The position numbers were made by a program, and so were the translations under genes. Below the pieces are notes generated by a model that saw nothing but the letters and a program-made list of their open reading frames with translations, was not told the origin of the DNA and ran no database searches. Positions 15,557-61,582 of a stretch of 64,000 nucleotides of DNA are shown one piece after another; the stretch's first letter is position 1; each line of letters opens with the position of its first letter. The stretch spans positions 8,529 to 72,528 of the forward strand of contig JAIVGS010000002.1 in assembly GCA_020201435.1 (NCBI GenBank), in the 5' to 3' direction. This stretch comes from Myxococcales bacterium (GTDB taxonomy: Bacteria; Myxococcota; Myxococcia; Myxococcales; 40CM-4-68-19).

Positions 15557-16698
15557 GCTGGCCGCGCGCGCCCCTGCTCATGGTCTCGAGCTCGTCCCGG
15601 ACGGGGCCGGCGGAAGGATTGATCTCGCTCGCCCGCGAGCTGCGCTCTCTCGGTCTCGACGCGCGCTTCGGCGGCGACACGGTGCGGCCGGGCGAGAATC
15701 TCGGCGAGCACCTCGCCCATGCCGGGGTGCCGTGGGAGCAGGAGCTGCGGCTGTCGCGGAAGGTGCGGATTCGCGACTTGGTTCGCGACGTGCGATTGCT
15801 CCGGGAGTGGGCGCGGTCGGGGCGATTCGACCTGTTCCACGCCGCGTTTGCCCACGATCACTTCGTCTCGCTGCTCGCCTCACGGCGCGCTCCCGATCTG
15901 CGCCTGGTGCGAGCGGCGCAGCGGCGGATCGACCTCGAGCCCGGGTTCCTGCGGCGGCGGCTCTGGGCGCTGCGGCGCAGCGACGGGGTGGTCGTTCACT
16001 GCGAGTCGTACCGCCGGTTGCTTCTTGGTCAGCTGGCCAAGGAGCGGGTCGCGACCGTCTACGGGTCCGTCGACGGACACTGGTTTTCGCCGGGGCGCTC
16101 GCCGGAGCTGCGCGCGCGATGGGGAATTCCGTCGGCGGCGCCGCTCGCGGGCATCGTCGCGCGGATGAAGCCGGAGCGCGGCCACCGCACGCTGCTGCGC
16201 GCCTTCGTGCGCGCCTTGCGCGAGGTGCGCGACGCCTGGCTGGTGCTGGTCGGCCGCGGCGAGGAGGAGGAGCCGTTGCGCGCCTTGACGCGGGAGCTGG
16301 CGATCTCCGACCGCGTCGTCTTCGGCGGGTATTTGCGGGGGCCGGGGCTGGTGGAGGCGTACCGGGCGCTCGACGTCGCGGTCTGGCTCCGCGAGGGCAA
16401 CGACGGCGCCTGCCGCGGAGTGCTGGAGGCGATGGCGTGCGGAGTGCCGGTGATCGCGGGCGCCGCCGGCGCGCCTGCCGAGCTGGTGACGGCGGAGACC
16501 GGGCGCATCGTCGATCCCGACGACGCCGGGGCCATCGGCGACGCCTTGGCCGGGGTTCTTGGTCATTTGACCAAATCGCGCGAGCTGGGCCTGGCTGCAC
16601 GCGAGCGCGCGCTGCAGTTCACGCCGCGGCGCGCTGCGGAAGAGACGCTGGCCTTCTGGCGCCGCCTGCGCGATCTGCCGCGGGTATGGGGGGCTTGA
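15553..16698 (+). CDS. Glycosyltransferase family 4 (GT1/GT4 fold)
   Basis: This is the C-terminal part of ORF 15094..16698, with a GTGA overlap onto the GT9 stop. Motifs include ...LVLVGRGEEEE..., FGGYLRG and EGNDGACRGVLEAMACGVPVIAG (EX7E-type region). Confidence 0.8.
   Translation: MSWPRAPLLMVSSSSRTGPAEGLISLARELRSLGLDARFGGDTVRPGENLGEHLAHAGVPWEQELRLSRKVRIRDLVRDVRLLREWARSGRFDLFHAAFAHDHFVSLLASRRAPDLRLVRAAQRRIDLEPGFLRRRLWALRRSDGVVVHCESYRRLLLGQLAKERVATVYGSVDGHWFSPGRSPELRARWGIPSAAPLAGIVARMKPERGHRTLLRAFVRALREVRDAWLVLVGRGEEEEPLRALTRELAISDRVVFGGYLRGPGLVEAYRALDVAVWLREGNDGACRGVLEAMACGVPVIAGAAGAPAELVTAETGRIVDPDDAGAIGDALAGVLGHLTKSRELGLAARERALQFTPRRAAEETLAFWRRLRDLPRVWGA
16025..16040. repeat. TTGGTCA-NN-TGACCAA family copy (TTGGTCAGCTGGCCAA, 1 mismatch)
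   Basis: Read directly, inside the GT4 gene. It encodes LGQLAK. Confidence 0.7.
16559..16574. repeat. TTGGTCA-NN-TGACCAA family copy (TTGGTCATTTGACCAA, exact)
   Basis: Read directly, inside the GT4 gene. It encodes LGHLTK and is followed by ATCGCG. Confidence 0.9.
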
Positions 16699-16706
16699 CA
16701 GCGCCG

Positions 16707-16750
16707 GTGCTAATGGATTAGCACTATGATACGTGCTAATGGATTAGCAC
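16707..16750. promoter_or_regulatory. Two identical 18-bp palindromes (GTGCTAATGGATTAGCAC), candidate BlaI-type operators
   Basis: The copies lie at 16707-16724 and 16733-16750, separated by TATGATAC. They end 15 bp before the blaI-like ATG. TTGACA at 16695-16700 and the TATGAT between the palindromes are possible promoter hexamers, but their 24-nt spacing is not canonical. Confidence 0.6.
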
Positions 16751-16764
16751 CTCCGGGAGCAGGC

Positions 16765-17130
16765 ATGGAGCTGGGCAGGCGCGAGCGGCAGATCATGGAC
16801 GCGGTCTATCGGCTGGGACGGGCCACGGTCGCGGAAGTGCGGGCGCAGCTCGCCGACCCGCCGACCTACTCGGCGGTCCGCGGCATGCTTCGTTGGCTGG
16901 AGGAGAAAGGGCAGCTCCGCCACGTTCAGGAAGGGGCGAAATACGTCTACATTCCGACCGTTGCACCTTCCAAGGCGCGGCGATCCGCGCTGCAGCGGCT
17001 GGTGCGGACGTTCTTCGGCGGGTCGACGCGCGAGGCGGTGGCGGCGCTGCTCGAGGATCGCCGGCTCGACCCGGAGGATCTCGATCGGCTGCGCGAGTTG
17101 ATCGACCACGCGCGCAAGGAGGGACGCTGA
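16765..17130 (+). CDS. BlaI/MecI/CopY family transcriptional repressor
   Basis: ORF 16726..17130, from M14. The sequence reads MELGRRERQIMDAVYRLGRATVAEVRAQLADPPTYSAVRGMLRWLEEKGQLRH...YIP. It is translationally coupled (TGATG) to the M56 protein. Confidence 0.85.
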   Translation: MELGRRERQIMDAVYRLGRATVAEVRAQLADPPTYSAVRGMLRWLEEKGQLRHVQEGAKYVYIPTVAPSKARRSALQRLVRTFFGGSTREAVAALLEDRRLDPEDLDRLRELIDHARKEGR

Positions 17131-19184
17131 TGGACGCCCTGCTGGTTCTTTGGTGGAAGGCGGCGGTGGTGCTCGCGGCGGGTGGGGCGGCAGCCGTCGT
17201 GGCCTGGCGGGCTTCGGCGGCGACGCGGCATCTGATCTGGACGGCGGCCCTGGCGGGCGCGCTGTTGTTGCCGGCGGCCATCGTCGTCCTGCCGTCGGTG
17301 CGCGTGGTCGCGCTGCCGGCGCGTCGGGCGAAGCCGGTCCCTTCGGTCGCGCGGATGCCGGTGCCCGTCGCGCCTGTCCGGGCCGTCGTGGCGCGGCCCC
17401 CGACGGTGAGCGAGGCTTTGGTGCCCGCCGCGCCTTTGAAGCGTGTTCGCCGGCCGATCGATTGGCGGCGCGTGGCGCCGTTCGTCTGGCTCGCGGGCGC
17501 GCTCGCGCTGCTCTTGCGCATCGCCGCCGGATCGCTGCAGCTGCGCGCGATGGGTCGGCGCGCGGTTGAGATCGTCGATCCGGCGTGGCGCCGGCTGCTG
17601 GTCGAGTCGGCCGCATGCCTCGGCGTGCGGGGGGAAGTGACGCTGCTCGAGAGCGCGGAGATCGAAGTGCCGGCGACCTGGGGATCGCTCCGTCCGGTCG
17701 TCGTCCTGCCGCCGGCGGCGTCGCGCTGGTCCGATGCGCAAAAGCGCGCGGTGCTGGTGCACGAGCTCGCGCACGTCGCCCGCCGCGACGCCGCCACGCA
17801 GCTGGTCGCGCGCGTCGCCTGCGCCGTCCACTGGGTGAATCCGCTCGCCTGGGCCGCGGCGGCGGCGATGCGGGCCGAGCGTGAGCGGGCATGCGACGAC
17901 TCCGTGCTCGAGGCCGGGGCGCGGCCGACTGACTACGCGACCAACCTGCTCGACGTCGCGCGCGCCGCGCTGCGCGACGGGGCGCCGGCCACTGCGCTGG
18001 CGATGGCGCGCCGGTCGCAGCTCGAAGGCCGGTTGCTGGCGGTGCTCGATCCGCGCCGTGACCGGCGGCCGCTGAGCGCGCGGCGCGCCATCGGAGTGGC
18101 GTGCGGGGCGGCGTGTCTGGTGTTGCCGCTCGCGGCGGTGCGCGCCGAGCGCGCGAGGGCACCCGAGCCCGTCATGGCGACCGTCCCGGAGCCGGAGCCG
18201 GCGGTCGCGCCCGAGCCGCTTCCCACGCCGTCGCCGGTCCGTCGCGCGCGGCGCGCGGTCGCGCAGTCGAGCGTCTCGGTGAGCTCGAGCAGCGGCGACG
18301 TGTACGCCCCGGTCCCGCCGACGCCGCCTTCCGCGCCCACGCCGCCGACGCCGCCTTCCGCGCCCACGCCTCCGACGCCGCCGACTCCACCGTCTCCGCC
18401 CTCGGCGCCGAGCGGCAACTTCAGCCAGCACATCGTTTCGAACGACGGCAGCAGGGTGTGGACCGCCGAGGCGCGGTTCCCGCGGCTCTATCGCGAGCAG
18501 GGCGCCCGCGGCGTGCTCGAGCAGGCCGGCAAGCTGCAGTCGGACTACGCCTTGCGGCGTTATCTGTCGCTGTTGATCGAGGCCGACCCGATGCAGGAGT
18601 CGACCGCGATCGCGGTGGTCGAGAGCGCGTCGCGGATGCACGGCGACTACGACCGCGCCGAGATCCTCAAGGCCGTGGCCGCCAGGGCACGGCTCGACAG
18701 CGACGCTGCGCGCGAGGCGTTCCTGCGCGCGTGCAACGGGATCTCCGGCGACTACGAGCATGCGCGCGTGCTGCACGTCCTCGCCGATCAGTCGACGCTT
18801 TCACCCGCGCTCACCCGCGGCGTGCTCGAGTCGGCCTCGACGATCCGCGGCGACTACGAGAAGTCGGGCCTGTTGATCGCTCTCGCCGGCCGCCATCCGG
18901 TCGATCCGTCCGAATACCTGCGTGCCGCGTCGACGCTCTCGGGGGATTACGAGCGCAGCCGGTCGCTGAAGGCGCTGATCGCGGCCCAGCGGTTGCCGGA
19001 GTCGTCGCAGGTCGACCTCATCCGCCAGGCGGCCCGACTCGGCGATTACGAATCGGCCGAGGTGCTGCTCGCGCTGGCGGCGAAACAGCCTCCCTCGGGC
19101 GAGGCGCTGCGCGAATACGAAAGTGCGGCCCGACGCCTGGGCGACTACTCGCGCCAGCGGGTGCTCGCCGCGCTGCACAAGTAG
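17130..19184 (+). CDS. BlaR1/MecR1-like M56 family membrane metalloprotease-sensor with a non-PBP C-terminal repeat domain
   Basis: This is the C-terminal 684 aa of ORF 16893..19184. It has N-terminal TM segments, the HELAHVARRD zinc motif, a Pro-rich linker, then about 7 repeats of ~33-36 aa each containing GDY[DE]. Confidence 0.8.
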   Translation: MDALLVLWWKAAVVLAAGGAAAVVAWRASAATRHLIWTAALAGALLLPAAIVVLPSVRVVALPARRAKPVPSVARMPVPVAPVRAVVARPPTVSEALVPAAPLKRVRRPIDWRRVAPFVWLAGALALLLRIAAGSLQLRAMGRRAVEIVDPAWRRLLVESAACLGVRGEVTLLESAEIEVPATWGSLRPVVVLPPAASRWSDAQKRAVLVHELAHVARRDAATQLVARVACAVHWVNPLAWAAAAAMRAERERACDDSVLEAGARPTDYATNLLDVARAALRDGAPATALAMARRSQLEGRLLAVLDPRRDRRPLSARRAIGVACGAACLVLPLAAVRAERARAPEPVMATVPEPEPAVAPEPLPTPSPVRRARRAVAQSSVSVSSSSGDVYAPVPPTPPSAPTPPTPPSAPTPPTPPTPPSPPSAPSGNFSQHIVSNDGSRVWTAEARFPRLYREQGARGVLEQAGKLQSDYALRRYLSLLIEADPMQESTAIAVVESASRMHGDYDRAEILKAVAARARLDSDAAREAFLRACNGISGDYEHARVLHVLADQSTLSPALTRGVLESASTIRGDYEKSGLLIALAGRHPVDPSEYLRAASTLSGDYERSRSLKALIAAQRLPESSQVDLIRQAARLGDYESAEVLLALAAKQPPSGEALREYESAARRLGDYSRQRVLAALHK
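18315..18368 (+). repeat. Perfect in-frame 27-bp tandem duplication (CCGCCGACGCCGCCTTCCGCGCCCACG x2) in the BlaR1-like linker
   Basis: Read directly. It encodes PPTPPSAPT twice and is followed by a degenerate third unit. Confidence 0.85.
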
Positions 19185-19194
19185 ATCCGCCGGG

Positions 19195-20091
19195 ATGACT
19201 CCGGGGATCTACCTCGTCCACAAGCCCGCCGGGCAGACCAGCTTTTCGCTGGTGCAGGCGTTCATGGAAGAAGTGCGCGCGTCGGGCCTGCGGCGCGACA
19301 AGCTGCCGGCCTGCCACGGCGGCGCGCTCGATCCGTTCGCCGATGGGCTGCTGCTCATCCTCGCGGGACAGGCGACGCGCCTGATGGATCTGCTGCACCC
19401 GATCCCCAAGACGTACGTCGCCGAGATCGCCTGGGGCAGCGAGACCGACAGCGGAGACTCTCTTGGCCAAATGACCAAATCGACCAAATCGCTTACGGTG
19501 ACCGAGCGGGACCTCACCGCCGCTCTGGAGCAGTTCGTCGGTTGGCGCGAGCAGGTCCCCCCGTCGACGAGCAACAAGCGCGTGGACGGTGAACGCGCGT
19601 ACCGGAAGGCGCACCGGGGGGAAACCGTCGTCCTGCCGCCTTCGCGCGTGTATCTCCACTCGGCGCGCTGGCGCTCGCACGACCTCCCCCGCGGCAGCGT
19701 GCTCGAGATCGTCACCGGCGGCGGGTACTACGTCCGCTCGCTCGCGCGGGACCTCGGGCGTGCCACTGGCGCATTTGGTCATTTGACCAAATTGCACCGG
19801 ACCGCGATCGGGCCGTGGTCCGATCCCCGGGACGGCCGCGAGCTGATCCGCGGCGCGCAGCTCTATCCCTGGTGTCCCTCGGTCGAGATCGACGAGCGCG
19901 AGCTGGCCCTCCTGCGCGGCGGCCGCGGCATCGAGCGCCGGCCGCCGACGGCGCCCGAGTGGAAATTGCCCGACGGTTTTCCCGACCCGCACGCGCCGCT
20001 TCGGGCGTTGATCGCCGGCCGGATCGTCGCCCTGCTGCGCGAGCGCGACGGCAAGCTGCACGCCGCGCCGGTCCTGCGCGGGCCGCTGTGA
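19195..20091 (+). CDS. truB: tRNA pseudouridine(55) synthase
   Basis: ORF 19123..20091, from M25. Motifs are GIYLVHKPAGQTSF, CHGGALDPFADGLLLIL (catalytic Asp), KTYVAEIAWG and VPPSTSNKRVDGERAY. Confidence 0.9.
   Translation: MTPGIYLVHKPAGQTSFSLVQAFMEEVRASGLRRDKLPACHGGALDPFADGLLLILAGQATRLMDLLHPIPKTYVAEIAWGSETDSGDSLGQMTKSTKSLTVTERDLTAALEQFVGWREQVPPSTSNKRVDGERAYRKAHRGETVVLPPSRVYLHSARWRSHDLPRGSVLEIVTGGGYYVRSLARDLGRATGAFGHLTKLHRTAIGPWSDPRDGRELIRGAQLYPWCPSVEIDERELALLRGGRGIERRPPTAPEWKLPDGFPDPHAPLRALIAGRIVALLRERDGKLHAAPVLRGPL
19463..19497. repeat. TTGGTCA-NN-TGACCAA family, long (35-nt) form: TTGGCCAAATGACCAAATCGACCAAATCGCTTACG
   Basis: Read directly, inside truB. It encodes LGQMTKSTKSLT. Confidence 0.85.
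19775..19790. repeat. TTGGTCA-NN-TGACCAA family copy (TTGGTCATTTGACCAA, exact)
   Basis: Read directly, inside truB. It encodes FGHLTK. Confidence 0.9.
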
Positions 20092-20092
20092 T

Positions 20093-20118
20093 CTGATTTG
20101 GTCAAATGACCAAATCAG
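20093..20118. repeat. 26-bp palindrome CTGATTTGGTCAAATGACCAAATCAG containing an exact family copy (20098-20113)
   Basis: Read directly. It starts 2 nt after the truB stop and contains the ligD stop codon (20115-20117) in its right arm. Confidence 0.9.
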
Positions 20119-21974
20119 AGGCCGGCGACCGCCGCGAGCGCCTGGGCCGTCAGCCGCTGGTGACTCTTCCAGTATTCCTTCCACGGGTCGGCGCGCAGCC
20201 GCGGCACCGTCTGTACGGTGAATTTCAGCGGATCGAGACGCGCCGACAGCTCGTCCCACGCGATCGGGACCGAAACCGGCGCGCCCGGCCGCGCCCGCGG
20301 CGAGTACGCCGCGATCGAGGTGTTGGTCCGGTTGTTGCGCAGGTAATCGATCAGGATCTTCTTCTCCCGCCCGGCCTTCGCGTACTCCGTGGTGTACGAC
20401 GCGCGATGCTGTCGCTCGACGGCCCGCGCCAGGTCGCGCGAAAAAGCGAGACAGTCGGTCCAGTCGCGCTCCGGAGCGAGCGGCACCACCACGTGCAACC
20501 CGCGGCCGCCGGTGGTCTTGACGAAGCTCTCGAGACCGAGGGCCCGCAGCGCCGACCGCAAGAGCCGCGCGCCCCCGACCACCTGGCGCCATCGCACCTC
20601 CGGACCCGGATCGAGATCGATCACGATTCGATCCGGCAGCTCGACCGCCTCGTCGCGCGTGTTCCAGGTATGGAACTCGATCACGTCCATCTGCACCAGC
20701 GCGAGCACCGCCTCGGGAGTATCGGCGATCAGGTACTCGCCGAGCTTCTTCTTCTCCTGAATCCGCACTCGCCGCAGGGCATCGGGGGCCCAAACCTTGG
20801 AGTGCTTCATGAACGTGCAGTCGTCGCCGATCGCGCCGGGGCAGCGCAGGAGCGTGAGCGGCCGCCCGCGCAGGTGCGGCAGCTCACGCTCGGCGACGCG
20901 GTCGTGATAGCGAGCCAGGTCGAGCTTGGAGAGGGCCTCCGCGGGAAAGACGACGCGCTCCGGATGGCTGAGCGAAATCCCGCGAACGGCGGGCCGCTCG
21001 CGGCCGACCTCGCGCGGCGCCTTGTCCTCGCGCAGTCCCTGAAAGGACGGATGGCGCAGGTTTCCGCCTTCGGTCCACTCGGTGAACATGACCTCCGCGA
21101 TCAACGCCGGTTTCACCCAGCGCGCGTTCCGCCCGAGCCAGCCCGGCGGCCGCTCGTCGAACGGGCACTCGCGCGTGCGCAGCGGCTCGAAGCGCGCGCG
21201 CAGCGACCGCGCCGCGGAGCGCGTGTAGCCGGTGCCGACCTTGCCCGCGAATCGAAGCTTGCCCGCCTCGTTCACGCCGACGAGCAGCGCCCCGATCGCC
21301 TTGCCGGGCTCGCGGGACGATTCGGTGAAACCGCCGACGACGAACTCCTGCCGGCGGACGCACTTCGTCTTGACCCACGCCGTGCTACGCCCCTCGTGGC
21401 GGGGAGAATCGAGCCGCTTGGAGACGATCCCTTCGAAACCGAGCCGGCAGGCCTCGCGAAGGACCGACGCGCCGCCGCCGAGCCAGTGCTGCGCGAGACG
21501 GACCATGCCGGTCCGCGGAACGGCTGCCGCGAGCGCGCGCGTGCGATCGCGCAGCGGCATGCGTGACAGATCGCGGCCGTCGAGCTCGAGCGCGTCGAAG
21601 ACGAAATAGACCAGCTCGCCGCGCCGGTCCCCGGCGATCCAGTTCTGCAGCGCCTGAAAGCTGGTGCGCCCATCGGCGAGGAGGACCGCGATCTCGCCGT
21701 CGAGGAGGGCGCTGGACACGGGAAGGCTGCGAGCGGCCGCCGCGACTTCGGGAAAATCACGCGTCCAGTCGTTCCCCTTGCGGCTCAGGAGCCGTACGCC
21801 GGCGCGCGCGACGCGGCATCCGATCCGGTACCCGTCGTACTTGATCTCGTGCAGCCAATCGTCGCCATCGGGAGGCGCCGGGACGAGCGTCGCGAGCTGC
21901 GGCCGGTACACGCTCACGTCGTTAGAGAGCCGGTGATGCTCGGTCGACGCCATTGCGGCAACATCGTCGTCCAA
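20115..21974 (-). CDS. ligD: Bifunctional LigD-type ATP-dependent DNA ligase + primase-polymerase (no phosphoesterase domain seen)
   Basis: ORF 20115..21974 (619 aa). The ligase motif is EIKYDGYR, with EGIVSKR. The C-terminal Pol domain has KTTGGRGLHVVVPL and LIDYLRNNRTNTSIAAYSPR. ATG 21953 is an alternative start. Confidence 0.85.
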   Translation of the reverse strand: MDDDVAAMASTEHHRLSNDVSVYRPQLATLVPAPPDGDDWLHEIKYDGYRIGCRVARAGVRLLSRKGNDWTRDFPEVAAAARSLPVSSALLDGEIAVLLADGRTSFQALQNWIAGDRRGELVYFVFDALELDGRDLSRMPLRDRTRALAAAVPRTGMVRLAQHWLGGGASVLREACRLGFEGIVSKRLDSPRHEGRSTAWVKTKCVRRQEFVVGGFTESSREPGKAIGALLVGVNEAGKLRFAGKVGTGYTRSAARSLRARFEPLRTRECPFDERPPGWLGRNARWVKPALIAEVMFTEWTEGGNLRHPSFQGLREDKAPREVGRERPAVRGISLSHPERVVFPAEALSKLDLARYHDRVAERELPHLRGRPLTLLRCPGAIGDDCTFMKHSKVWAPDALRRVRIQEKKKLGEYLIADTPEAVLALVQMDVIEFHTWNTRDEAVELPDRIVIDLDPGPEVRWRQVVGGARLLRSALRALGLESFVKTTGGRGLHVVVPLAPERDWTDCLAFSRDLARAVERQHRASYTTEYAKAGREKKILIDYLRNNRTNTSIAAYSPRARPGAPVSVPIAWDELSARLDPLKFTVQTVPRLRADPWKEYWKSHQRLTAQALAAVAGL

Positions 21975-21989
21975 CGCGTCAGCTCACCC

Positions 21990-23285
21990 TCACCATGGCC
22001 GCGCTTGCGCGGTCTCGCGGATGAAGGCCTCGAATCCCGCGCGATCCCGCGCGGCCTGCGCGATGCGCTGCACCGCCTCGCGCAGGTCGGCGATGCCGGT
22101 CGCGACCGAAAGGCGCAGAAACTGCTCCCGGTCGGCGCCGATGCGCCCGAACGACTTGCGGTCCAGCGTCGCCACACCGTGGCGCATGAGCAGGAACATC
22201 TGGAACAGCGTCACCGGTGTCGTGCGCGCGCGCTCGTCCTCGGGGAGCTCGCCGTGCGCGGCGAAGACGCCGAGCTTCTCACAGACCCCGCGCACGTTCG
22301 GCCAGACGTAGAACGCGCCCGGCGGCAGCGCGCAGCGGATCCCCTCGACGCGGCTGAGCCCCTCGACGACGAGGTCGCGCCGCTCGCGGAAGGAATCGAC
22401 CATCCGCTTCAGGGTCGGCGCGCGCAGCGGCGAGTCCAGCGCGACGCGCGCCGCTTCCTGGGTATACGCGGCAACGCACGAGAAGTAGTTGATGTTGAGG
22501 TTGCGGAAGACCTGCGCCTCCGCGACGGTCGGCAGGAGCGCCCAGCCGACGCGGCCGCCCGTCCAGGCGTAGCTCTTCGAGACGCCGGAGACGACGATCG
22601 TGCGCTCCGACATGCCCGGAAGCGCGGCGATCGATCGGTGTCCCCCGTCGAAGACGATGTCCTCGTAGATCTCGTCGGAAAAGACCCGGGCGCCCGGGGG
22701 AAGCCTGGTACGGAGGACTTCGGCGATGCCGTCCAGATCTTCCGGCGACGGAACGCCGCCGGTCGGATTGGAGGGGAAATTGAGATAGACCAGCCGCGTC
22801 CGCGGCGTGATCAGCCGCGCGAGATCCTCGGCGGCGAACGCGAAGCCGCGATCCTCGCGCAGGTAGAGCGGCACCGGCACCGCGTCGATGAAGCCGGTGA
22901 ACGACTCGTAGATCGGAAATCCGGGCGAGGGATAGATGATCTCGTCGCCCGGATTCGCATACGTCTGCTGCGCGAATCCGATCGGAACCTTCGCTCCCGG
23001 AAAGATCACCACGCGTTCGGGCGCGGCGTCGATGCCCTGCGCGCGCATGTGCCGTGCCACCGCGTCGCGCAGCGAGAGCACGCCCTGCGGCTCGCAGTAG
23101 TGCGTGTTGCCCGCGTCGAGCTGGCGCTTGATCTCGTCGCGGATGTGATCGGGCAAAGGAAAATCCGGCTCGCCGATGTTGCAGCGGATGACGCGCAGCC
23201 CGCGCGACTCTGCCTGCGCGATCATCGGCCCGAGCCGGAACGCATTCTCGGTGCCGAGGCGGGCAACGCGGTCTGCGTACATCAT
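21990..23285 (-). CDS. Pyridoxal-phosphate-dependent aminotransferase (class I/II)
   Basis: ORF 21990..23285 (431 aa). Motifs are NIGEPDFPLP, NFPSNPTGG and the SGVSKSYAWTGGRVGW Lys motif. Confidence 0.85.
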   Translation of the reverse strand: MMYADRVARLGTENAFRLGPMIAQAESRGLRVIRCNIGEPDFPLPDHIRDEIKRQLDAGNTHYCEPQGVLSLRDAVARHMRAQGIDAAPERVVIFPGAKVPIGFAQQTYANPGDEIIYPSPGFPIYESFTGFIDAVPVPLYLREDRGFAFAAEDLARLITPRTRLVYLNFPSNPTGGVPSPEDLDGIAEVLRTRLPPGARVFSDEIYEDIVFDGGHRSIAALPGMSERTIVVSGVSKSYAWTGGRVGWALLPTVAEAQVFRNLNINYFSCVAAYTQEAARVALDSPLRAPTLKRMVDSFRERRDLVVEGLSRVEGIRCALPPGAFYVWPNVRGVCEKLGVFAAHGELPEDERARTTPVTLFQMFLLMRHGVATLDRKSFGRIGADREQFLRLSVATGIADLREAVQRIAQAARDRAGFEAFIRETAQARPW

Positions 23286-24502
23286 CGGCTCCGGAACCGC
23301 GAAAGCACGGCGAGCACCTCGTCGATGTCCGACGCCGTATGATCGGCGGAAACCTGGAAGCGGATCAATTGTTCGCCCTTCGGGACCACCGGATAGTTGA
23401 GGCCGGTGGCGAGCACTCCGCTCTCACGCAGGAACCGCACCAGCGCGCGGGTGCGGTCGGTGTCGCGCACGAGGAGCGGGACGACCGGGTGCTGGCCGTC
23501 GATCGTCTCGTAGCCGAGGGTCTTGATGCCGTCCCGGAAGCGCCTGGTCATCTCGCGCAGGTGCGAGAGCAATCGCGCGCCGTTGCGGATGATCTCGAGC
23601 GCCGCGAGCGCGGCGGCGGCCTCGCCCGGCGCGATCGGATTGGAATAGATGTAGAAGGGGTTCTTCTCGCGCAGGTACCGGATCACGCTCCCGTCCGAGC
23701 AGATGTACCCGCCGTTGACGCCGATCGCCTTGCCGAGCGTGCCGACCAGGACGTCGGCGCGGCCGCCGGTGATCTCCTCGGTCCCGCGGCCGGTGGCGCC
23801 GAACGCACCGACGCCGTGGGAGTCGTCGACGACCAGCACCACGCCGCGAGCGAAGCGGCCGTCGAACCGGGCGACGATCTCCTGGATCCGATCTACCGGC
23901 GCGTGATCGCCCCGCATGCTGAAGACGCCGTCGGTGATGACGATCGCGCTGTCGCATTGTCCGACGCACTCCTCGAGCTGGTTTTGCAAGGCCTGCAGAT
24001 TCAGGTGCGGGTAGATCTTGCGCAGCTTGGCGCGCGCCAGCTTCATGCCGTTGACGATGCAGTTGTGGTTCAGCTCGTCGCTGATCAGCGCCGTCTCCGG
24101 TGTCGAGAGGCTGAAGAGGACTCCGGCCACCGCGGTGTACGCCGAGCCCGCTGCCATCGCCGCCGGCCGCGCGTGGAACTGGGCCAGGGCAGCCTCGAGC
24201 CGGACGTGAGGCTGGTACGTGCCGCTGATGAACCGCACCGCGCCGGGTCCGACTCCGTACGCGTGCGCCGCCGTCTCTTCCGCGCGCGCCAGCTCGGGAC
24301 GCAGGGTGAGCCCGAGGTAGGAGTTCGAGTTCATCCGGATGAACTCGCGATCGCCCTCACCCTCGAGGACGAAGCGCGGCCCGCGCCCTTCGCGCGCCGG
24401 TAGCACCTTCACCACGATCGATTCGGCGCCTTTCGCGGTGCCGGCGTTGTCGAGCTCGCGGAGCTGCGTTTCCAAATCCTGTACGAATTTCGCAAGCGGC
24501 AT
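23282..24502 (-). CDS. kbl: Glycine C-acetyltransferase (2-amino-3-ketobutyrate CoA ligase)
   Basis: ORF 23282..24502 (406 aa). It belongs to the alpha-oxoamine synthase family (NSNSYLGL, DDSHGVGAFGATGRG, GTLGKAIG). It is adjacent to the threonine dehydrogenase gene. Confidence 0.8.
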   Translation of the reverse strand: MPLAKFVQDLETQLRELDNAGTAKGAESIVVKVLPAREGRGPRFVLEGEGDREFIRMNSNSYLGLTLRPELARAEETAAHAYGVGPGAVRFISGTYQPHVRLEAALAQFHARPAAMAAGSAYTAVAGVLFSLSTPETALISDELNHNCIVNGMKLARAKLRKIYPHLNLQALQNQLEECVGQCDSAIVITDGVFSMRGDHAPVDRIQEIVARFDGRFARGVVLVVDDSHGVGAFGATGRGTEEITGGRADVLVGTLGKAIGVNGGYICSDGSVIRYLREKNPFYIYSNPIAPGEAAAALAALEIIRNGARLLSHLREMTRRFRDGIKTLGYETIDGQHPVVPLLVRDTDRTRALVRFLRESGVLATGLNYPVVPKGEQLIRFQVSADHTASDIDEVLAVLSRFRSR

Positions 24503-24527
24503 GTTGCAAAATCTCCTATATAAATAT

Positions 24528-25466
24528 TCACAAAAGCTGGCGCAGCATGTCCTCGGTCATCGCCGCAAGCGAATAGCGCGGCGACCACCGCCACTCCTCG
24601 CGCGCGGCCGAGTCGTCTAGCGTCTCGGGCCACGAGTCGGCGATCGACTGCCGGCGCGGATCGACGGCGTAGTCGATGCGGAAGTCGGGAATGTGCGCGC
24701 GGATCGAATCGGCCAGCTCGGCGGGCGTGAAGTCGATGGCGCCGAGGTTGTAGGCGTTCCGGTGCTTGAGCTTGCCGGGCTCCGCTTCCATCAGCTCGAT
24801 CATCGCGCGGATCGCGTCGGGCATGTACATCATCGGAAGCCGCGAATCGGCGCGCAGATAGCAGGTGTACTGCTTGTGCGCGATCGCCTGCCGGTAGATG
24901 TCGACCGCATAGTCGGTGGTGCCGCCCCCGGGATCGGTCTTGTAGGAGATCAATCCGGGAAAGCGCAGCCCGCGGGTGTCCATGCCGAAGCGGCGGTGGT
25001 AGTCGTCGCAGAGCAGCTCCCCGACGACTTTCGTGACACCGTACATGGTGGTCGGGCGCTGGATCGTGACTTGCGGCGTCTTCTTGCGCGGAGTCTCCGG
25101 ACCGAACGCGCCGATCGAGCTGGGAAAGAAGAGCGCGCAGCCGTATTGCCGACCGGCTTCGAGCATGTTGACGACTCCGTCGACATTCAGCTGCCAGGCC
25201 TGCAGCGGCCGCGTCTCGCCGACCGCGGACAGCAGCGCGGCGAGATGGAAGATGGTGTCGATGCGATGCATCTGCATCGCCCGGGTGATGTGGTGCGGGT
25301 TGAGGCAGTCGATGAACTCGAAGGGCCCGCTGTCGCGCAGCGCCGGATCGGAGGGGAGCTTGACGTCGCTCGCCACCACCGCGGAATCGCCGTAGCGCTG
25401 GCGGAGCGCGACCGTCAGCTCCGAGCCGATCTGTCCCACCGCTCCGGTGACCAGGATGCGTTTCAT
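24528..25466 (-). CDS. tdh: L-threonine 3-dehydrogenase, NAD-dependent epimerase/SDR type
   Basis: This is the C-terminal 312 aa of ORF 24528..26756. Motifs are MKRILVTGAVGQIGSEL, the YGVTKVVGE (YxxxK) motif and a GLISYKTDPGGGTTDYAV loop. It is paired with kbl. Confidence 0.8.
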   Translation of the reverse strand: MKRILVTGAVGQIGSELTVALRQRYGDSAVVASDVKLPSDPALRDSGPFEFIDCLNPHHITRAMQMHRIDTIFHLAALLSAVGETRPLQAWQLNVDGVVNMLEAGRQYGCALFFPSSIGAFGPETPRKKTPQVTIQRPTTMYGVTKVVGELLCDDYHRRFGMDTRGLRFPGLISYKTDPGGGTTDYAVDIYRQAIAHKQYTCYLRADSRLPMMYMPDAIRAMIELMEAEPGKLKHRNAYNLGAIDFTPAELADSIRAHIPDFRIDYAVDPRRQSIADSWPETLDDSAAREEWRWSPRYSLAAMTEDMLRQLL

Positions 25467-37514: not shown

Positions 37515-38579
37515 ATGTTGAAGCCGCCGATCGCGCCGATGCTGGCCAAGCTCTCGACTGCGCTGCCCGAGGGGGACGGGTGGCTGTACGAGCCGAAATG
37601 GGACGGTTTTCGCGCGCTGGTCTTCCGCGACGGTTCGGACGTCTACCTGCAGAGCCGCGATCTGAAGCCGTTGAACCGGTATTTTCCCGAGCTGCTCGGA
37701 CCGCTGGGTGCGCAGCTGCCGGCGGGGTGCGTGCTGGATGGGGAGATCGTGATCGCCGACCCGTCGGGGCATCTCGACTTCGACGCGCTGCTGCTGCGGA
37801 TCCATCCGGCCGAATCGCGGATCAAGCTGCTCGCTTCGCAGACGCCGGCGTCGTACGTCGCGTTCGATCTCCTCGCGCGAGACGGCGAGGATCTGACCGG
37901 AACGGCGCAGGCGAAGCGGCGCGAGCTGCTGGAGAAGATCCTCTCACGGGCGACGCCCCCGCTGTACCTGACGCCGGCGACGCGCAACCGTTCGGTTGCG
38001 GGAGACTGGTTCTCCCGCTTCGAGGGTGCGGGCCTCGACGGTGTGGTCGCCAAGCGGCTGGAAGAGGCGTACCAGCCTGACAAGCGCGTCATGCTCAAGG
38101 TGAAGCACGCCCGCACCGCGGACTGCGTGGTCGCCGGTTTTCGCTGGCACAAGAACGGGCCGGGAACGATGGTCGGATCTCTCCTGCTCGGGCTCTACGA
38201 CGACTCCGGGACGCTGCACCACGTCGGCGTGACGTCCTCGTTCACCACCGCGGCGCGCAAGCAGCTCGTCGCGGAGCTCGAGCCGCTCCGCGCCGGCGCC
38301 GCGGAGAACCATCCCTGGCGCGATTGGGCTTCGTGGGCCGGCGAGCAGCGGATGCCGGGCGCGACTTCGCGCTGGAATCGCGGCAAAGACCTCTCGTGGG
38401 AACCGCTGCGCATCGAGCGGGTGTGCGAGGTTGCCTACGACCATCTGCAGGGCGACCGGTTCCGCCACGCGACCACCTTCAAGCGCTGGCGTCCGGACAA
38501 GCCGCCGTCCGAGTGCCGCTACGATCAACTCGAGGAGACGCCCGCTGCGGAGCTGAAGCAGATCTTCGGCGCGCGTTGA
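37515..38579 (+). CDS. ligC: ATP-dependent DNA ligase (LigC-like, ligase domain only)
   Basis: ORF 37515..38579 (354 aa). Motif I is YEPKWDGFR. Further motifs are LDGEIV, DGVVAKR and MLKVKH. Confidence 0.85.
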   Translation: MLKPPIAPMLAKLSTALPEGDGWLYEPKWDGFRALVFRDGSDVYLQSRDLKPLNRYFPELLGPLGAQLPAGCVLDGEIVIADPSGHLDFDALLLRIHPAESRIKLLASQTPASYVAFDLLARDGEDLTGTAQAKRRELLEKILSRATPPLYLTPATRNRSVAGDWFSRFEGAGLDGVVAKRLEEAYQPDKRVMLKVKHARTADCVVAGFRWHKNGPGTMVGSLLLGLYDDSGTLHHVGVTSSFTTAARKQLVAELEPLRAGAAENHPWRDWASWAGEQRMPGATSRWNRGKDLSWEPLRIERVCEVAYDHLQGDRFRHATTFKRWRPDKPPSECRYDQLEETPAAELKQIFGAR

Positions 38580-38619
38580 CGCTTGCCTGCGGCGACTTGT
38601 CCATTTTCACGGGCTCCGT

Positions 38620-39636
38620 ATGCTGAAAAGCGTGCCGGCGCGCAAGGAGCTGCTCCAGGTCGAAGGCCGCGAGGTCGCGATCTCGAATCCCGACAAGGTC
38701 TTTTTCCCGCAGCGCGCGATCACCAAGCTCGACCTGGTCAAGTACTACCTCGCGGTCGCCGCGGGCGCGCTGCGCGGAGCGGGCGGCCGGCCGATGGCGC
38801 TCAAGCGCTACGTCAACGGCGCCGAGGGAGCATTCTTCTTCCAGAAGCGCGCGCCGGAAGCGCGGCCGCTGTGGATCGAGGTCGTGGAGCTGAAGTTTCC
38901 CTCCGGGCGCACCGCGCGGGAGATCGTGCTGCGCGATGCGGCGCAGCTGGCATGGATCGTCAACCTCGGCTGCATCGATCTGCATCCGCACCCGGTGCGC
39001 GCGGAGGATCTCGATCATCCCGACGAGCTGCGCGTCGATCTCGATCCGGTCCCGAACGTGCCCTTCTCGCAGGTCCGCGAGGTCGCGCTGCTGGCGCGCG
39101 AGGTGCTGCGCGAGCACCGCCTGGAAGGATTTCCCAAGACCTCGGGTTCGCGCGGGATTCACGTCAACGTGCGGATTCAACCGCGCTGGACCTTCCAAGA
39201 CGTGCGCGCGGCTGCGCTCGCGCTCGCGCGCGAAGTGGAGCGCCGCGCGCCATCGCTGGCGACGTCGAAGTGGTGGAAGGAAGAGCGGCATGGCGTGTTC
39301 ATCGACTACAACCAGAACGCGAAGGATCGGACGGTCGCGTCCGCGTATTCGGTGCGGCCCACGCCCGACGCGCGAGTCTCGACGCCCCTCGGCTGGGACG
39401 AAGTTCCGAACGTCGACCCTGCGGAGTTCACGCTCGAGACGGTGCCACGGCGCTTCGCGGCGCTCGGCGATCCGCACGCGAAGATCGAGGAGGAGAAGGG
39501 CTCGCTCGAATCGCTGCTCGAGCTGTCGGCGCGGCAGAAATCGGAAGGGCAGGGCGATGCGCCGTGGCCGCCGCATTACGCCAAGCAGGACGACGAACCG
39601 CCGCGCGTGCAGCCCTCGAAGCGCCGCAAGCGCTAG
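38620..39636 (+). CDS. LigD-polymerase-domain-like primase-polymerase (Prim-Pol)
   Basis: ORF 38620..39636 (338 aa). Motifs are ISNPDKVFFP, DLDP, KTSGSRGIHVNVRI and FIDYNQNAKDRTVASAYSVRP. Confidence 0.85.
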   Translation: MLKSVPARKELLQVEGREVAISNPDKVFFPQRAITKLDLVKYYLAVAAGALRGAGGRPMALKRYVNGAEGAFFFQKRAPEARPLWIEVVELKFPSGRTAREIVLRDAAQLAWIVNLGCIDLHPHPVRAEDLDHPDELRVDLDPVPNVPFSQVREVALLAREVLREHRLEGFPKTSGSRGIHVNVRIQPRWTFQDVRAAALALAREVERRAPSLATSKWWKEERHGVFIDYNQNAKDRTVASAYSVRPTPDARVSTPLGWDEVPNVDPAEFTLETVPRRFAALGDPHAKIEEEKGSLESLLELSARQKSEGQGDAPWPPHYAKQDDEPPRVQPSKRRKR

Positions 39637-40013: not shown

Positions 40014-40157
40014 CCGGGGCAGAACGCGCGATGTCGTTCCGCGATCTATCGATCGTAGATCCCGCCGCAAGTGAAAAGCCAACGAGTACGGCAGGATAGG
40101 CACGGCACGCGGCGTGAATTGGCGGACTTCAACCCTTTTCGGAGCCGGAGCCCGCCG

Positions 40158-42410
40158 ATGAACCGCATTGCGACATTGCTCTTCCTTTTCGCCGCCCCTT
40201 CGTTCGCGCAAGCCCAGGGTGCGCTGTTCGAACGCGCGCAAACCGGGCCGAGCCCGAATCTGCGCGCGGTCGCCGAGCGCGTGCGGGTGACGATCGATCA
40301 CCAGTATGCGGAGACCGTGCTCGAGCAGGAATTCGAAAACACGTCGGGCGCGCGACTCGAGGGTCGCTACCTCCTGCGCACCGCGGGCGCGACCGTCGAA
40401 GGATTCGCCTACTGGAACGGCGAGCAGAAGATCGTCGGCGAGGTCTTCGAGAAGCAGCAGGCGCGCAACCTCTACGAGAACGTCGTCGGCCGCAGGCGCG
40501 ACCCGGGGTTGCTCGAGCAGATCGGCGAAGGAAGCTTCGCGTTCAACGTCTTTCCGATCGAGCCGCGCGAGAGGAAGCGCGTCGAGGTCCGCTTCGGCCA
40601 GCGGCTCGCGCGCGAAGGCCGAACGATGCAGTACCGGCTGACGCTCGGTGGCGGCGAGAGCGACGTCGTCGCCGAGATCTCCGATCCGCATCCGATCCTG
40701 CGCATCGATTCGCAGAGTCATCGGCTCGACACCGAACGACTCGACGCGCGGCACGCGCGGGTGCGCGCCTTCGCCGGGCCATCGGGGACGCGAGACCTGA
40801 TCATCGACGTCGAGGTCAACGCCGATCCGTGGCAGCCGACCGCCGTCGTGCATCGCGATCCGGGCCAGGACCCCTACCTGGTGCTGCAGATGGCCGCGCC
40901 GGCGACGGTCGCGGCGAGCGAAGTCAGCCGCAAGGACGTGACCGTGGTGATCGATCGATCGGGCAGCATGACCGGCCCGCCGATGGACCAGGCCTGCGCT
41001 GCCGGCGAGCTGGTCGTGCGCCGGTTGCGGCGGGGCGATCGCGTCAACGTGATCGCCTTCGATCACACCGTCGATCCGCTGTTCACGAAGCCGCAGCCGG
41101 TCGAGACCGCGCGCGATGCGGCGCTGCAGTTCATCCATCGCATCCGCGCGGGCGGCGGCACCAACATCGCCGCGGCGCTCGACGCCGCGCTCCGCGCGCA
41201 GCACGGCGGGACCGAGCCTCACATCGTCCTCTTCCTCACCGACGGCCAGTCGGACAGTGAATCGGCGCTGCGGGTCGCTCACGACGATCGCGGCGACACG
41301 CGCGTGTTCACCTTCGGCCTCGGGAGCGAGGTGGAGAAGGCGCTTCTCTCGCGGCTCGCTTCGACCAAACGCGGGCGCTTCACGTACGTCGAGAGTCCGG
41401 AGGTCATCGAGCAGCGGGTGGGCCGCCTCTTCGACCAGATCGAGTCGCCCGCGCTGGTCGGGCTCTCGCTGGAGGCGCGGGGCGCGACGCTGCTGCGCAC
41501 GTATCCCCGGACGCTGCCGGATCTCTCGGCGGGCGACGACCTGCTCGTCGCGTCGCGGGTGATGGGCGCCCCGGGGTCGCAGCTCGAGCTGGTCGTGCAC
41601 GGCACGCTCGGCGGGCGGCAGGTTTCGTATCCGGTCAGCGTCACGCTGCCGGAGCGCGCCTCGCACCCGTGGGCGGGGCGGCTGTGGGCGAAGTCGCGCA
41701 TCGACGACGTGCTGGAGGAGATGGCGTTGACCCGCGATCCGCCCAACGAGCTGAAGGACGAGGTCATCGAGCTCGGGCTGGCGTACGACCTGGTGACCCC
41801 GTACACGTCGTTCCTCGCCGTGCCCGAGAGCGAGCTCGCCGGCGAGCAGGCGCTGACACTGGCGCAGATGCGCGAGCAGCGGGCGAAGGTCGTCGCGGCG
41901 AACGCCGACGCGGCGGCGCTGTCGCGCAAGAACATGCCGCCCGGCGATCCGCTGCTGACGGTGAACGCGCCGCGGGATGCCCTGCAGGTCACCGCATATT
42001 TCCCGTTCGGGCTGGTGCGCGACCTGAAATGGGACGATCACCTCGAGAAATGGACGCTGCGTTTCCTGGTGCCAGTCGGTGTCGCCGACGGCGATTACGA
42101 GGCGATGGTGGTCATCGTGCGCCGCGATCACACCATCGAGCTGGCGAAAGCGGCGTACACGATCGACAGCAAGGAGCCGGAGTTCGAGGTCGATGCCGCG
42201 CAGGCGATCTCCGGCGTGCACGTACGCGTAATCGCCGCCGAGCCGGCGCGGCGTGTGACCGTGGCTCTCGCCCGCGATCCGCGGCAGCGCATCGAGCTCG
42301 CCGGCGACGGCCGCGTGTTCGAAGGCGATCTTCCCGTGCGCGGCACGCTGCGGGTCGTGGTCGCGGACATGGCGCGGAACGAGACCTCGCGCGAGGTCGA
42401 GCCGCGATGA
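40158..42410 (+). CDS. Secreted VIT (vault/inter-alpha-trypsin) + von Willebrand factor A domain protein
   Basis: ORF 40071..42410, from M30. It has a signal peptide (MNRIATLLFLFAAPSFAQA), a VIT-like N-terminus and a VWA MIDAS motif (VVIDRSGSM...TNIAAAL...LFLTDGQSD). Confidence 0.8.
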   Translation: MNRIATLLFLFAAPSFAQAQGALFERAQTGPSPNLRAVAERVRVTIDHQYAETVLEQEFENTSGARLEGRYLLRTAGATVEGFAYWNGEQKIVGEVFEKQQARNLYENVVGRRRDPGLLEQIGEGSFAFNVFPIEPRERKRVEVRFGQRLAREGRTMQYRLTLGGGESDVVAEISDPHPILRIDSQSHRLDTERLDARHARVRAFAGPSGTRDLIIDVEVNADPWQPTAVVHRDPGQDPYLVLQMAAPATVAASEVSRKDVTVVIDRSGSMTGPPMDQACAAGELVVRRLRRGDRVNVIAFDHTVDPLFTKPQPVETARDAALQFIHRIRAGGGTNIAAALDAALRAQHGGTEPHIVLFLTDGQSDSESALRVAHDDRGDTRVFTFGLGSEVEKALLSRLASTKRGRFTYVESPEVIEQRVGRLFDQIESPALVGLSLEARGATLLRTYPRTLPDLSAGDDLLVASRVMGAPGSQLELVVHGTLGGRQVSYPVSVTLPERASHPWAGRLWAKSRIDDVLEEMALTRDPPNELKDEVIELGLAYDLVTPYTSFLAVPESELAGEQALTLAQMREQRAKVVAANADAAALSRKNMPPGDPLLTVNAPRDALQVTAYFPFGLVRDLKWDDHLEKWTLRFLVPVGVADGDYEAMVVIVRRDHTIELAKAAYTIDSKEPEFEVDAAQAISGVHVRVIAAEPARRVTVALARDPRQRIELAGDGRVFEGDLPVRGTLRVVVADMARNETSREVEPR

Positions 42411-43584
42411 TCGCGGCGCTTCTCCTCGCGGCGATCTTCACCGACACCGCGCAAGTCGAGAGCATTGCCACCGCCGGCGCGACCCTCTGGGCCGCGACCG
42501 GCGGCGGCGTCGAACGGTACGATCTCGCCACCGGCAAGCGGGTCCGCGTCCACACCATCGGGCCGACGCTGCGGATTTGGTCAAATGACCAAAACGGTCA
42601 AATCGCTCATGCGCGCACGCGGGATTCCGAGTGCATCCTCGAGGGCGAGACCGCAGAGTGCATTGCGGCGCCAGCGCTGCCGCCGTCGATCCCCTCGGTG
42701 ACTCCGCTGTTTCACGGAGCGCGCGAGACCGCACGCGTCGTCGCAAACGGCACGACCGTCGTCGCCACCGCGGGCAAGGGCATTTGGTCAAACGACCAAA
42801 TGCTCACCCCGCCAGGCCAGATCTGCGGCAATTACGTCGAGGCGCTGGCCGAATTCCAGGGAAAGCTGTGGGTCGGCGGGTTCGACGGCGGCCTCTGTGT
42901 CCTGGACGGGCAGCGTTTCCGAGCGGTGGCGGGGCCGTTCCGGATGATCAACGACCTGCGCACCACGCCGAAAGGCCTCTACGTCGCCTCGGCCGAGGGC
43001 CTCTACTTCACCCGCGACGGCCGCCGGTTCCGCCGCGAAGACCGCATCCGCGAGCGGGCCGTCAACCACCTCGCCGTCGGCGGCCGGTGGCTCTTCGCCA
43101 CCACGCCGTTCGCGCTGTACGCCGTCCGGCTCGATGGCCGGATCGTCAAGCGCTGGCGAAAGCCGGCCGGCTCGACCGCCCTGCAATCGGTCGCGGTGAG
43201 CGGACCGAATCTCTGGCTCGCGTCGGAAGACGTCGGCGTCATCCGCATGCGCCGAGGCAGGTTCGAAGCTTACGACCGCGCCTGGGGATTGCCGTCCAGC
43301 TGGACGGTCGACGTCGCACCGGCGTCCGACGGCGGCGTCTGGGCGGCGACGCTGCGCAACGGCTCGGTCCATCTCGACGCCAACGGACGCGTGATCGAGC
43401 TCGGCCCCGACCCGCACGCCTGGGGACTGCGCCTCTACCAGGACCGGGGCCGCACGCTCTTCGGCACGCAACAGGGCCTCGAAGGCATCGAGGGCCTCCC
43501 CGATCCGCACGTGCACGCGATCCTCCGGACACGCGACGGCCTCTGGATCGGCACCGAGGGCGGCCTGGTCCTGCTCGACGATGC

Positions 43585-57413: not shown

Positions 57414-57417
57414 CCAA
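57402..57417. repeat. TTGGTCA-NN-TGACCAA family copy (TTGGTCAACTGACCAA, exact)
   Basis: Read directly. It contains the rhomboid stop codon (57411-57413) and ends 20 nt before the glgB ATG. Confidence 0.9.
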
Positions 57418-57437
57418 CGCGGTCCATATTCCCCGCC

Positions 57438-59312
<1,875 letters not shown>

Positions 59313-60963: not shown

Positions 60964-60968
60964 AGTTC

Positions 60969-61003
60969 TTGGTCAAATGACCAAATCGTTCAAATCGCTC
61001 AAG
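60969..61003. repeat. TTGGTCA-NN-TGACCAA family, long (35-nt) form: TTGGTCAAATGACCAAATCGTTCAAATCGCTCAAG
   Basis: Read directly. It is intergenic, between two convergent stops (60963 and 61015). Confidence 0.9.
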
Positions 61004-61521: not shown

Positions 61522-61582
61522 GATCGGACTGTAGCGCACCCGGGGCGCGGCGGCCGCGGCGGCGGCCGGATAACTTGGCCGG

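Follow-up and report, generated by a model that had tools for sequence, protein, structure and literature searches.

A conserved palindromic word in and after truB of a soil Myxococcota bacterium as a candidate operator of a TetR-family repressor

Results

The 64,000-nucleotide stretch of DNA analysed here (the window; contig JAIVGS010000002.1 of a Myxococcales bacterium assembly) has a G+C content of ~70% and carries truB, the gene of tRNA pseudouridine-55 synthase, whose product is 100% identical to P0001, a protein from a soil metagenome-assembled genome (MAG) labelled 'Myxococcales bacterium'. Our subject is an 18–20-bp palindromic word, at truB of the form (A/T)YTTGGTCA-AA/TT-TGACCAAR, which stands twice inside this gene and once directly behind it. 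An earlier reading of the sequence alone had placed three copies there, and all three were found:

19195–20091, plus strand: truB, tRNA pseudouridine-55 synthase, 298 amino acids, called gene with Pfam domains TruB_N and TruB_C_2
19462–19479: word copy 1, CTTGGCCAAATGACCAAA, one mismatch in the 16-nt core (GGC for GGT), read as L-G-Q-M-T-K
19462–19495: extended copy 1, with a 3′ extension TCGACCAAATCGCTTA that holds a third half-site, read as LGQMTKSTKSL
19774–19791: word copy 2, TTTGGTCATTTGACCAAA, perfect, read as F-G-H-L-T-K inside GAFGHLTKLHRT, the conserved GxxGHLxxLRRT segment of truB
20097–20114: word copy 3, TTTGGTCAAATGACCAAA, perfect, within a 26-nt palindrome CTGATTTGGTCAAATGACCAAATCAG at 20093–20118, between the convergent truB and ligD stops

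The stop codon of truB occupies 20089–20091, and copy 3 begins five bases after this TGA; at its other end, the stop codon of the convergent ligD gene (20115–20117) overlaps the 20-mer of copy 3 by one base. As a 20-mer, the word is ATTTGGTCA-WW-TGACCAAAT with AA or TT in the centre, the flanks of TTGGTCA-AA-TGACCAA being A-T/T-C on the left and A-T/G-A on the right. The sequence-only reading had assigned both intragenic copies to conserved regions of the protein, which holds for copy 2, whereas copy 1 lies, as that reading's own text has it, in the variable loop after WGSETD.

The two intragenic copies are spelled with codons that are uncommon in the neighbourhood. Across ~12,500 codons of window genes, the shares of these codons among those of their amino acid are TTT (Phe) 14%, GGT (Gly) 5.5%, CAT (His) 17%, TTG (Leu) 6%, AAA (Lys) 12% and CAA (Gln) 6%. 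Given the amino acids and this local codon usage, the FGHLTK spelling at site 2 has a probability of P = 5e-6; for the LGHLTK spelling of a further copy at 16558 the value is P = 1.5e-6, and for LGQMTK, as relatives spell it, P = 9e-6. Codons ending in A or T number 7 of 12 inside the two words and 29 of 286 in the rest of truB, in agreement with the earlier remark that an A+T-rich spelling is used here despite a G+C-rich norm.

TruB homologues are plentiful in soil metagenomes, and the words were followed through a codon alignment of the truB DNA of 11 orthologues (loci from other MAGs and metagenome contigs are given below by L numbers). In the protein alignment, QMTK(S/T)xKS and FGHLTK are kept by the TruB clade down to ~70% identity, and more distant TruB proteins have RVVARGD and ALAHLxAL at the word positions. 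Because TruB has the same length in relatives without words, the words arose by substitution and not by insertion; a mobile insertion of the repetitive extragenic palindromic (REP) or RPE-like type was rejected on this unchanged length and on the orthology of the word positions.

At the nucleotide level, site 2 (GCA TTT GGT CAT TTG ACC AAA TTG) is invariant in nine clade sequences, and L236 (69% identity), which holds site 2 only, differs there in no more than two flank codons (GCT CTT). Site 1 reads CTT GGT CAA ATG ACC AAA ... TCC AAA TCG CTC across the clade, with GGC in the window where relatives have GGT. Synonymous positions next to site 2 are free to vary (GGG/GGC, CGT/CGC/CGG, ACC/ACG, CCG/CCC/CCT). 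When we counted the alignment columns that hold the same degenerate amino acid in all seven full-length clade truB genes (72–84% amino-acid identity), a single codon was used throughout in 10 of the 12 columns inside the words, compared to 38 of the 151 outside them (Fisher p = 9e-5), and it is the rare codons that are retained within the words. The outgroup L237 (70% amino-acid identity, 71% G+C) uses G+C-rich codons at both sites, spelling the segment CTC GCC CAC TTG CGC GCG CTG, and has no word in its 18.5 kb, even at four mismatches. The sequence-only reading, which took the word to be selected in its own right, had named as counter-evidence relatives of similar GC content that share the rare codons but do not form the full palindrome elsewhere in their genomes; the relatives with these codons do form it at truB, and most of them elsewhere as well. 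Taken together, these comparisons support the proposal that selection at the DNA level constrains the spelling of truB.

The copy just after the truB stop is likewise present in L001, L012, L094, L133 and L231. The surroundings of truB differ among relatives, with blaR, a divergent metallo-beta-lactamase-fold gene or a GMC oxidoreductase gene upstream, and ligD, a GFA-domain gene, a Pyr_redox gene or an aminotransferase gene downstream. Since the neighbours change yet the words stay, the constraint is tied to truB or its DNA. In the truB of L094 (MAG JANXXR01), an in-frame insertion of 20 residues made of tandem LEAV-type repeats (TETMDLRLEAVQLEAVRLEA...) follows directly on the extended site 1, at 2484–2543.

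Across the window there are seven good copies of the word (16558, 19462, 19774, 20097, 42576, 42783 and 60968) and three weak ones (57401, 61574 and 61904), six of the ten being intragenic. In 100 dinucleotide-preserving shuffles of the window, 0 matches were obtained at ≤2 mismatches, against the 7 observed. Away from truB, the copies are:

16558–16575: CTTGGTCATTTGACCAAA, near the 3′ end of a family-1 glycosyltransferase gene, read as LGHLTK, ~140 bp upstream of the blaI promoter
42576–42609: perfect copy followed by the extension ACGGTCAAATCGCTCA with a third half-site, within the 5′ portion of a Reg_prop beta-propeller gene, read as IWSNDQ
42783–42800: TTTGGTCAAACGACCAAA, one mismatch, in the same Reg_prop gene and frame, 207 bp downstream of the 42576 copy
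57401–57418: CTTGGTCAACTGACCAAC, decayed copy with three mismatches; the rhomboid gene stop is its TGA, 20 bp before the glgB ATG at 57438
60968–61001: CTTGGTCAAATGACCAAA followed by extension TCGTTCAAATCGCTCA, intergenic, the two neighbouring genes being convergent
61574–61591: CTTGGCCGGATGACCAAG, decayed copy; a 181-aa gene (61583–62128) starts with its central ATG
61904–61921: CTTGGTCAAATGGCCAAG, weak copy inside the 181-aa gene 61583–62128, read as LGQMAK

The centre of the word is a codon boundary in one frame, which reads x-G-(H/Q)-(L/M)-T-K on either strand and is used by the copies at 16558, 19462, 19774 and 61904. The second frame reads I-W-S-N-D-Q, as at 42576 and 42783, and the third contains the TGA with which the rhomboid gene ends at 57401. 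Neighbouring words are spaced by 54–55, 65, 169, 207, 234, 263, 312 or 323 bp, and by eye no helical phase is common to these spacings. A sub-class, made up of the copies at 19462, 42576 and 60968 and those in L072, L125, L166 and L173, continues as TCG-n-TCAAA-W-CGCTC; this extension resembles a third half-site GGTCAAAT 17 bp downstream of the word and might serve to bring in a second dimer.

For each of the window copies, relatives (~75–84% nucleotide identity to the window) have a counterpart at the orthologous place. The orthologues of the 16558 and 42576 copies are at L001:4312 and L068:2556, and that of the 60968 copy, with its extension, is at L072:4508. The 42783 copy is perfect in L068:2754 and the 57401 copy in L072:899, L215, L218 and L225; the 61574 copy is perfect in L072:5094, over the start codon, and in L140:13393, and the 61904 copy has the same sequence at L072:5424 and is perfect at L140:13063.

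Beyond these orthologues, the exact 18-mer TTTGGTCAWWTGACCAAA was found in 109 stretches among 185,579 species genomes, nearly all of them singletons in unrelated taxa, and the lineage MAGs VBLM01, JAYWAJ01 and JANXXR01 have 1–3 exact-match loci each. The apparent restriction of the words to particular regions is weak, because an exact 18-mer search misses CTTGG...CCAAG variants. The copies cluster at particular loci: no copy is present in the window at 1–16 kb, 20–42 kb or 43–57 kb, nor in the flanks of L238, L239 and L242, which adds up to tens of kb of lineage DNA without a copy. Separately, AT-rich MAGs of the candidate divisions TA06 and WOR-3 (L058 at 842 and 1218; L091 at 6565 and 6941; L041 at 926; L107 at 7727) carry the near-word TTTGGTCAATTGACCAAA, which in the TA06 loci forms part of a longer palindrome, ctcaTTTGG...CCAAAtgag, and occurs there as pairs with a spacing of 376 bp, a separate use in unrelated lineages.

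As to how the word is recognized, its 16-nt core TTGGTCAAATGACCAA is nearly invariant in 65–69 distinct lineage sites. Over 69 sites, the seven paired positions of the core hardly vary: six are fixed or almost fixed, and the seventh (T/A) is kept in 61. Where sites deviate, one arm alone is changed (T:G, C:A, A:C), and pairs that would compensate are practically absent. With AA/TT at the centre of 59 of 65 sites, the word is strictly speaking no true palindrome. A near-invariant core that lacks compensatory pairs fits recognition by a sequence-specific protein, in preference to a hairpin.

A candidate for such a protein emerged from loci outside the window. At L039, a JAYWAJ01 locus without similarity to the window, four words lie within 1.2 kb, two of them in the 70 bp that separate a regulator gene from an EamA transporter gene; the ATG of the regulator is the ATG inside one word, and the second word is 54 bp upstream. 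The encoded protein has the domains TetR_N and TetR_C_24, the latter defining a class that includes the acyl-CoA-sensing regulators FadR and KstR2. Its closest solved relatives are 4mxm/4mo7, 3vpr and KstR2 (FadR-type proteins included), and it falls below every NCBIfam equivalog cut-off.

Orthologues of this regulator at 72–88% identity are common in the same soil lineage. Six distinct lineage tetR loci (L039/L238, which are one locus, L239, L240/L241, L242, L243 and L244) carry 3–5 words each and encode proteins 72–100% identical, and in all six the promoter has twin words 54–55 bp apart. A further word, often an imperfect one, stands in the 3′ end of tetR at L039/L238, L239, L240/L241, L243 and L244. 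Other words are found ~25–35 bp upstream of the start of an acyl-CoA dehydrogenase gene (L239, L240/L241, L242) and within the 5′-terminal part of a gene for an RlmI-like methyltransferase (L039/L238, L239, L240/L241, L242), where the ATG of the word may be the true start codon. In four distant orthologues of the regulator (43–47% identity), namely L025 from Gemmatimonadaceae, L155, L161 and L210, the word again lies over the start codon, and the layout is a −35 box TTGAC, ~17 nt, and a −10-like hexamer running into TTTGGTCATATGACCAAA, whose ATG is the start codon. Such an arrangement over the tetR start is the known signature of an autoregulated TetR repressor, conserved here in 6/6 lineage loci and the four distant orthologues.

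The association, which crosses phyla, is also visible in the counts: of 229 loci that were fetched solely because they contained the word, 14 have a tetR N-terminus no more than 140 bp away from it, against ~1.1 expected (P = 8e-12). About 9–10 of the 14 are independent, and the four distant orthologues are among them. The operator TTGGTCA-AA-TGACCAA was not found in the searched literature. At three other loci (L165 at 3817, L082 at 736 and L099 at 2356) the word and the N-terminus of a different TetR-family gene are a constant ~747 bp apart, an offset that puts it at that gene's far end or before its neighbour; this suggests that further TetR subfamilies may use the operator.

Discussion

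Within and behind truB, the window holds three copies of a palindromic word whose spelling is conserved at the synonymous level, and in related MAGs the same word covers the promoter of a TetR-family gene. We therefore consider it probable that the word is the operator of an uncharacterised FadR/KstR2-class TetR repressor (TetR_C_24). The repressor itself would bind the words, and its ligand may well be an acyl-CoA, a class indicated by the domain family and by the neighbouring acyl-CoA dehydrogenase.

At its own gene, the repressor would occupy two operators 54–55 bp apart, one just upstream of the TTGAC −35 box and the second covering the −10/start region and containing the ATG start codon, and in three lineage loci it would bind a further operator before the adjacent acyl-CoA dehydrogenase gene. 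In this lineage of soil Myxococcota, point substitutions would have created additional operators at fixed positions, three of them at truB, where purifying selection on protein binding would keep them and thereby force rare A+T-rich codons upon a 70% G+C gene. On the simplest view, repressor bound at the three truB sites, 312 and 323 bp apart, could act through roadblocks or auxiliary operators and make truB, or transcription through the convergent truB/ligD junction, responsive to it. We assign the truB copies to auxiliary or roadblock operators only tentatively, at somewhat less than even odds; the three conserved copies might owe their presence to a roadblock, an auxiliary or an architectural role.

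Several observations weigh against an operator of this kind. By tblastn, the 64-kb window contains no orthologue of the regulator, whose gene is seen in related MAGs and metagenome contigs only. The genes that carry the word (those of an LPS-core glycosyltransferase, truB, a Reg_prop protein, rhomboid/glgB and a DUF2780-like protein; LPS, lipopolysaccharide) have no obvious functional theme in common, and two copies are flanked by convergent genes and have no promoter at hand that could be repressed. A promoter scan of 16300–20500 returned no sigma-70-like promoter, and the two terminator-like matches in this interval are at chance level. Four window copies (19462, 42783, 57401 and 61574) are more decayed than their orthologues, which may reflect weaker constraint in this genome. 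Finally, the conserved 16-nt extension (TCGnTCAAATCGCTCA) on three window copies is not explained by a simple dimer operator.

One variant keeps a TetR-family protein as the binder but takes the mostly intragenic, positionally fixed operator clusters, the three copies at truB and those between convergent genes among them, as architectural or roadblock elements of that protein and not as promoter switches. We regard it as unlikely; if true, it would mean protein-mediated insulation of convergent transcription, or chromosome-position marks resembling those of RefZ and SlmA, for the sake of which selection rewrote the codons of truB.

The more specific idea that a TetR-family protein or a paralogue binds the words as chromosome-position marks, in the manner of the RefZ motifs of Bacillus or the SlmA sites of E. 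coli, where a few clusters of positionally conserved intragenic palindromes provide spatial cues for division or chromosome handling, appears quite unlikely. The clusters do lie, for the most part within genes, at places that are fixed and conserved, each of the three exact-match loci of MAG VBLM01 has its orthologue in this one window, and the peak of the cumulative GC skew (42416) is beside the 42.6-kb pair of words. RefZ and SlmA are themselves TetR-family proteins with such sites (PMC6657595), and the NCBIfam RefZ model gives an N-terminal match to the regulator, albeit a weak one far below the cut-off. However, a regulator with a TetR_C_24 ligand domain, beside an acyl-CoA dehydrogenase gene that has its own operator at three loci, has the layout of a metabolic repressor; the FtsK-orienting polar sequence (KOPS)-like octamer shows no reversal of polarity across 42.4 kb, no dif-like or parS-like site was seen, and the regional restriction that the idea leans on is weak for the reason given above. 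A parS/ParB centromere was considered in its own right and rejected, there being no TGTTNCACGTGNAACA-like site at ≤3 mismatches and neither ParA nor ParB among the called genes.

Another DNA-binding protein, for example of the GntR/FadR type with half-sites TGGT/ACCA, could instead regulate tetR through the word. The half-site TTGGT...ACCAA resembles what is generally known of GntR-family boxes, and the window has the word without a tetR gene. Against this, the TetR-family gene alone recurs beside the word in unrelated word-seeded loci, and the fixed offset of the word over the start of that gene is the classic layout of autoregulation, which makes a different binder very unlikely.

We also weighed a function of the palindrome as a nucleic-acid hairpin, be it a REP-like element, a stabiliser or terminator at RNA 3′ ends, or an mRNA structure. 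The copies at 20097 and 60968, as well as the metagenome copies in L166, L173 and L125, come right after stop codons, the first two between convergent genes, and the 20097 copy can form a 12-bp RNA stem of −30.5 kcal/mol (z = −5). Yet window site 1 does not fold (z = +0.8) although it is conserved in relatives, the deviations in the 69 lineage sites break pairing on one arm only, without compensatory changes, and no U-tract follows the stems. The same sequence lies over tetR promoters in several taxa, genomes have few copies each, and neither word position in TruB is polymorphic for an insertion. A hairpin function is therefore highly improbable. For an intrinsic terminator or structural RNA hairpin, the stem at 20097 was found without U-tract, compensatory changes or Rfam match, the window as a whole being devoid of Rfam families and tRNA genes. 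A mobile palindrome of the REP or miniature inverted-repeat transposable element type was rejected in view of the six of ten window copies that are intragenic, the equal length of TruB with and without words, and the few loci per genome.

Least credible is genome-wide over-representation under a molecular drive, as for DNA-uptake sequences or HIP1-like iterated words, which would recur about once per 1–10 kb; this was rejected on the few exact matches and 1–3 loci per lineage MAG and the long copy-free stretches described above.

The preferred reading, an operator of a TetR_C_24 repressor, has partial parallels in known systems. RutR of E. coli, which also belongs to the TetR family, has 14 of 20 in vivo targets inside genes, far from start codons, and its intragenic sites have little measurable effect and no deep positional conservation in that study (PMC2475637). 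It resembles the present case further in recognizing a 16-bp palindrome of the same half-site letters (TTGACCAnnTGGTCAA), although the half-site order is opposite (TTGACCA..TGGTCAA, compared to TTGGTCA..TGACCAA) and the synonymous conservation seen here argues for function. Most intragenic transcription-factor sites detected by chromatin immunoprecipitation, among them those of RutR and PhoB, reportedly appear inert. The synonymous-site conservation at truB argues that intragenic operators can be functional, and provides a system in which this is testable.

RefZ, for its part, has near-palindromic sites whose positions are conserved across the genus Bacillus (PMC6657595). The word sites, too, are conserved in position, and RefZ and SlmA are TetR-family binders as, we infer, is the protein here; unlike in the present case, where the gene neighbourhood of the regulator is metabolic, both of them act on FtsZ. 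Operators of autoregulated, acyl-CoA-responsive repressors of the TetR_C_24 class (Bacillus/Thermus FadR, KstR2) match the word in being inverted repeats of ~18 bp, with twin operators in the regulator's own promoter and, at three lineage loci, one before a neighbouring acyl-CoA dehydrogenase gene, but differ in that many operators here lie deep inside unrelated genes and are conserved there. Intragenic auxiliary operators that satisfy a coding and a binding constraint at once are known from lac O2 and gal OI; those, however, are inside the regulated operon near the promoter and act by looping, whereas the genes around truB differ between relatives.

The operator kind as such is known, and what is unusual is the deep conservation of intragenic operators inside a universal gene. 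It would amount to natural dual coding, in which a binding site overrides the G+C codon bias in a conserved catalytic segment of truB and is fixed across a clade with ~25–30% protein divergence. The analysis further yields a specific predicted operator for an as yet uncharacterised, widespread TetR_C_24 regulator of uncultured soil Myxococcota, and makes its regulon predictable from sequence.

Other features of the window

Some observations concern other parts of the window. Upstream of truB, blaI (ATG at 16766) has a textbook promoter with TTGACA at 16696, and a different 18-bp palindrome, GTGCTAATGGATTAGCAC, stands at 16707–16724 and 16733–16750, on either side of TATGAT; the pair presumably represents BlaI's own operators. 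The BlaR1-like M56 protein encoded upstream of truB contains a proline/threonine-rich low-complexity tract, PPTPPSAPTPPTPPSAPTPPTPPTPPSPPSAP, at 18340–18460. Two LigD-type genes are present, a ligase + Prim-Pol fusion (20115–21974, convergent with truB) and a stand-alone Prim-Pol domain (38557–39636). A look-up of the product of the VWA gene at 40071–42407 gave no record.

The cumulative GC skew climbs as far as 42416, where it is highest, and declines beyond, for the most part independently of the strand of the genes and with the polarity expected for a replication terminus; no dif-like site was found, and the polarity of GGGNAGGG is not reversed on the right (left +6/−1, right +2/−1). The most A+T-rich 28-mer of the window, AAAATCTCCTATATAAATATTCACAAAA (24508–24535, 5 G/C), overlaps the 5′ end of the minus-strand open reading frame 23282–24556, upstream of aminotransferase genes, and is probably a promoter region and not a dif-like site.

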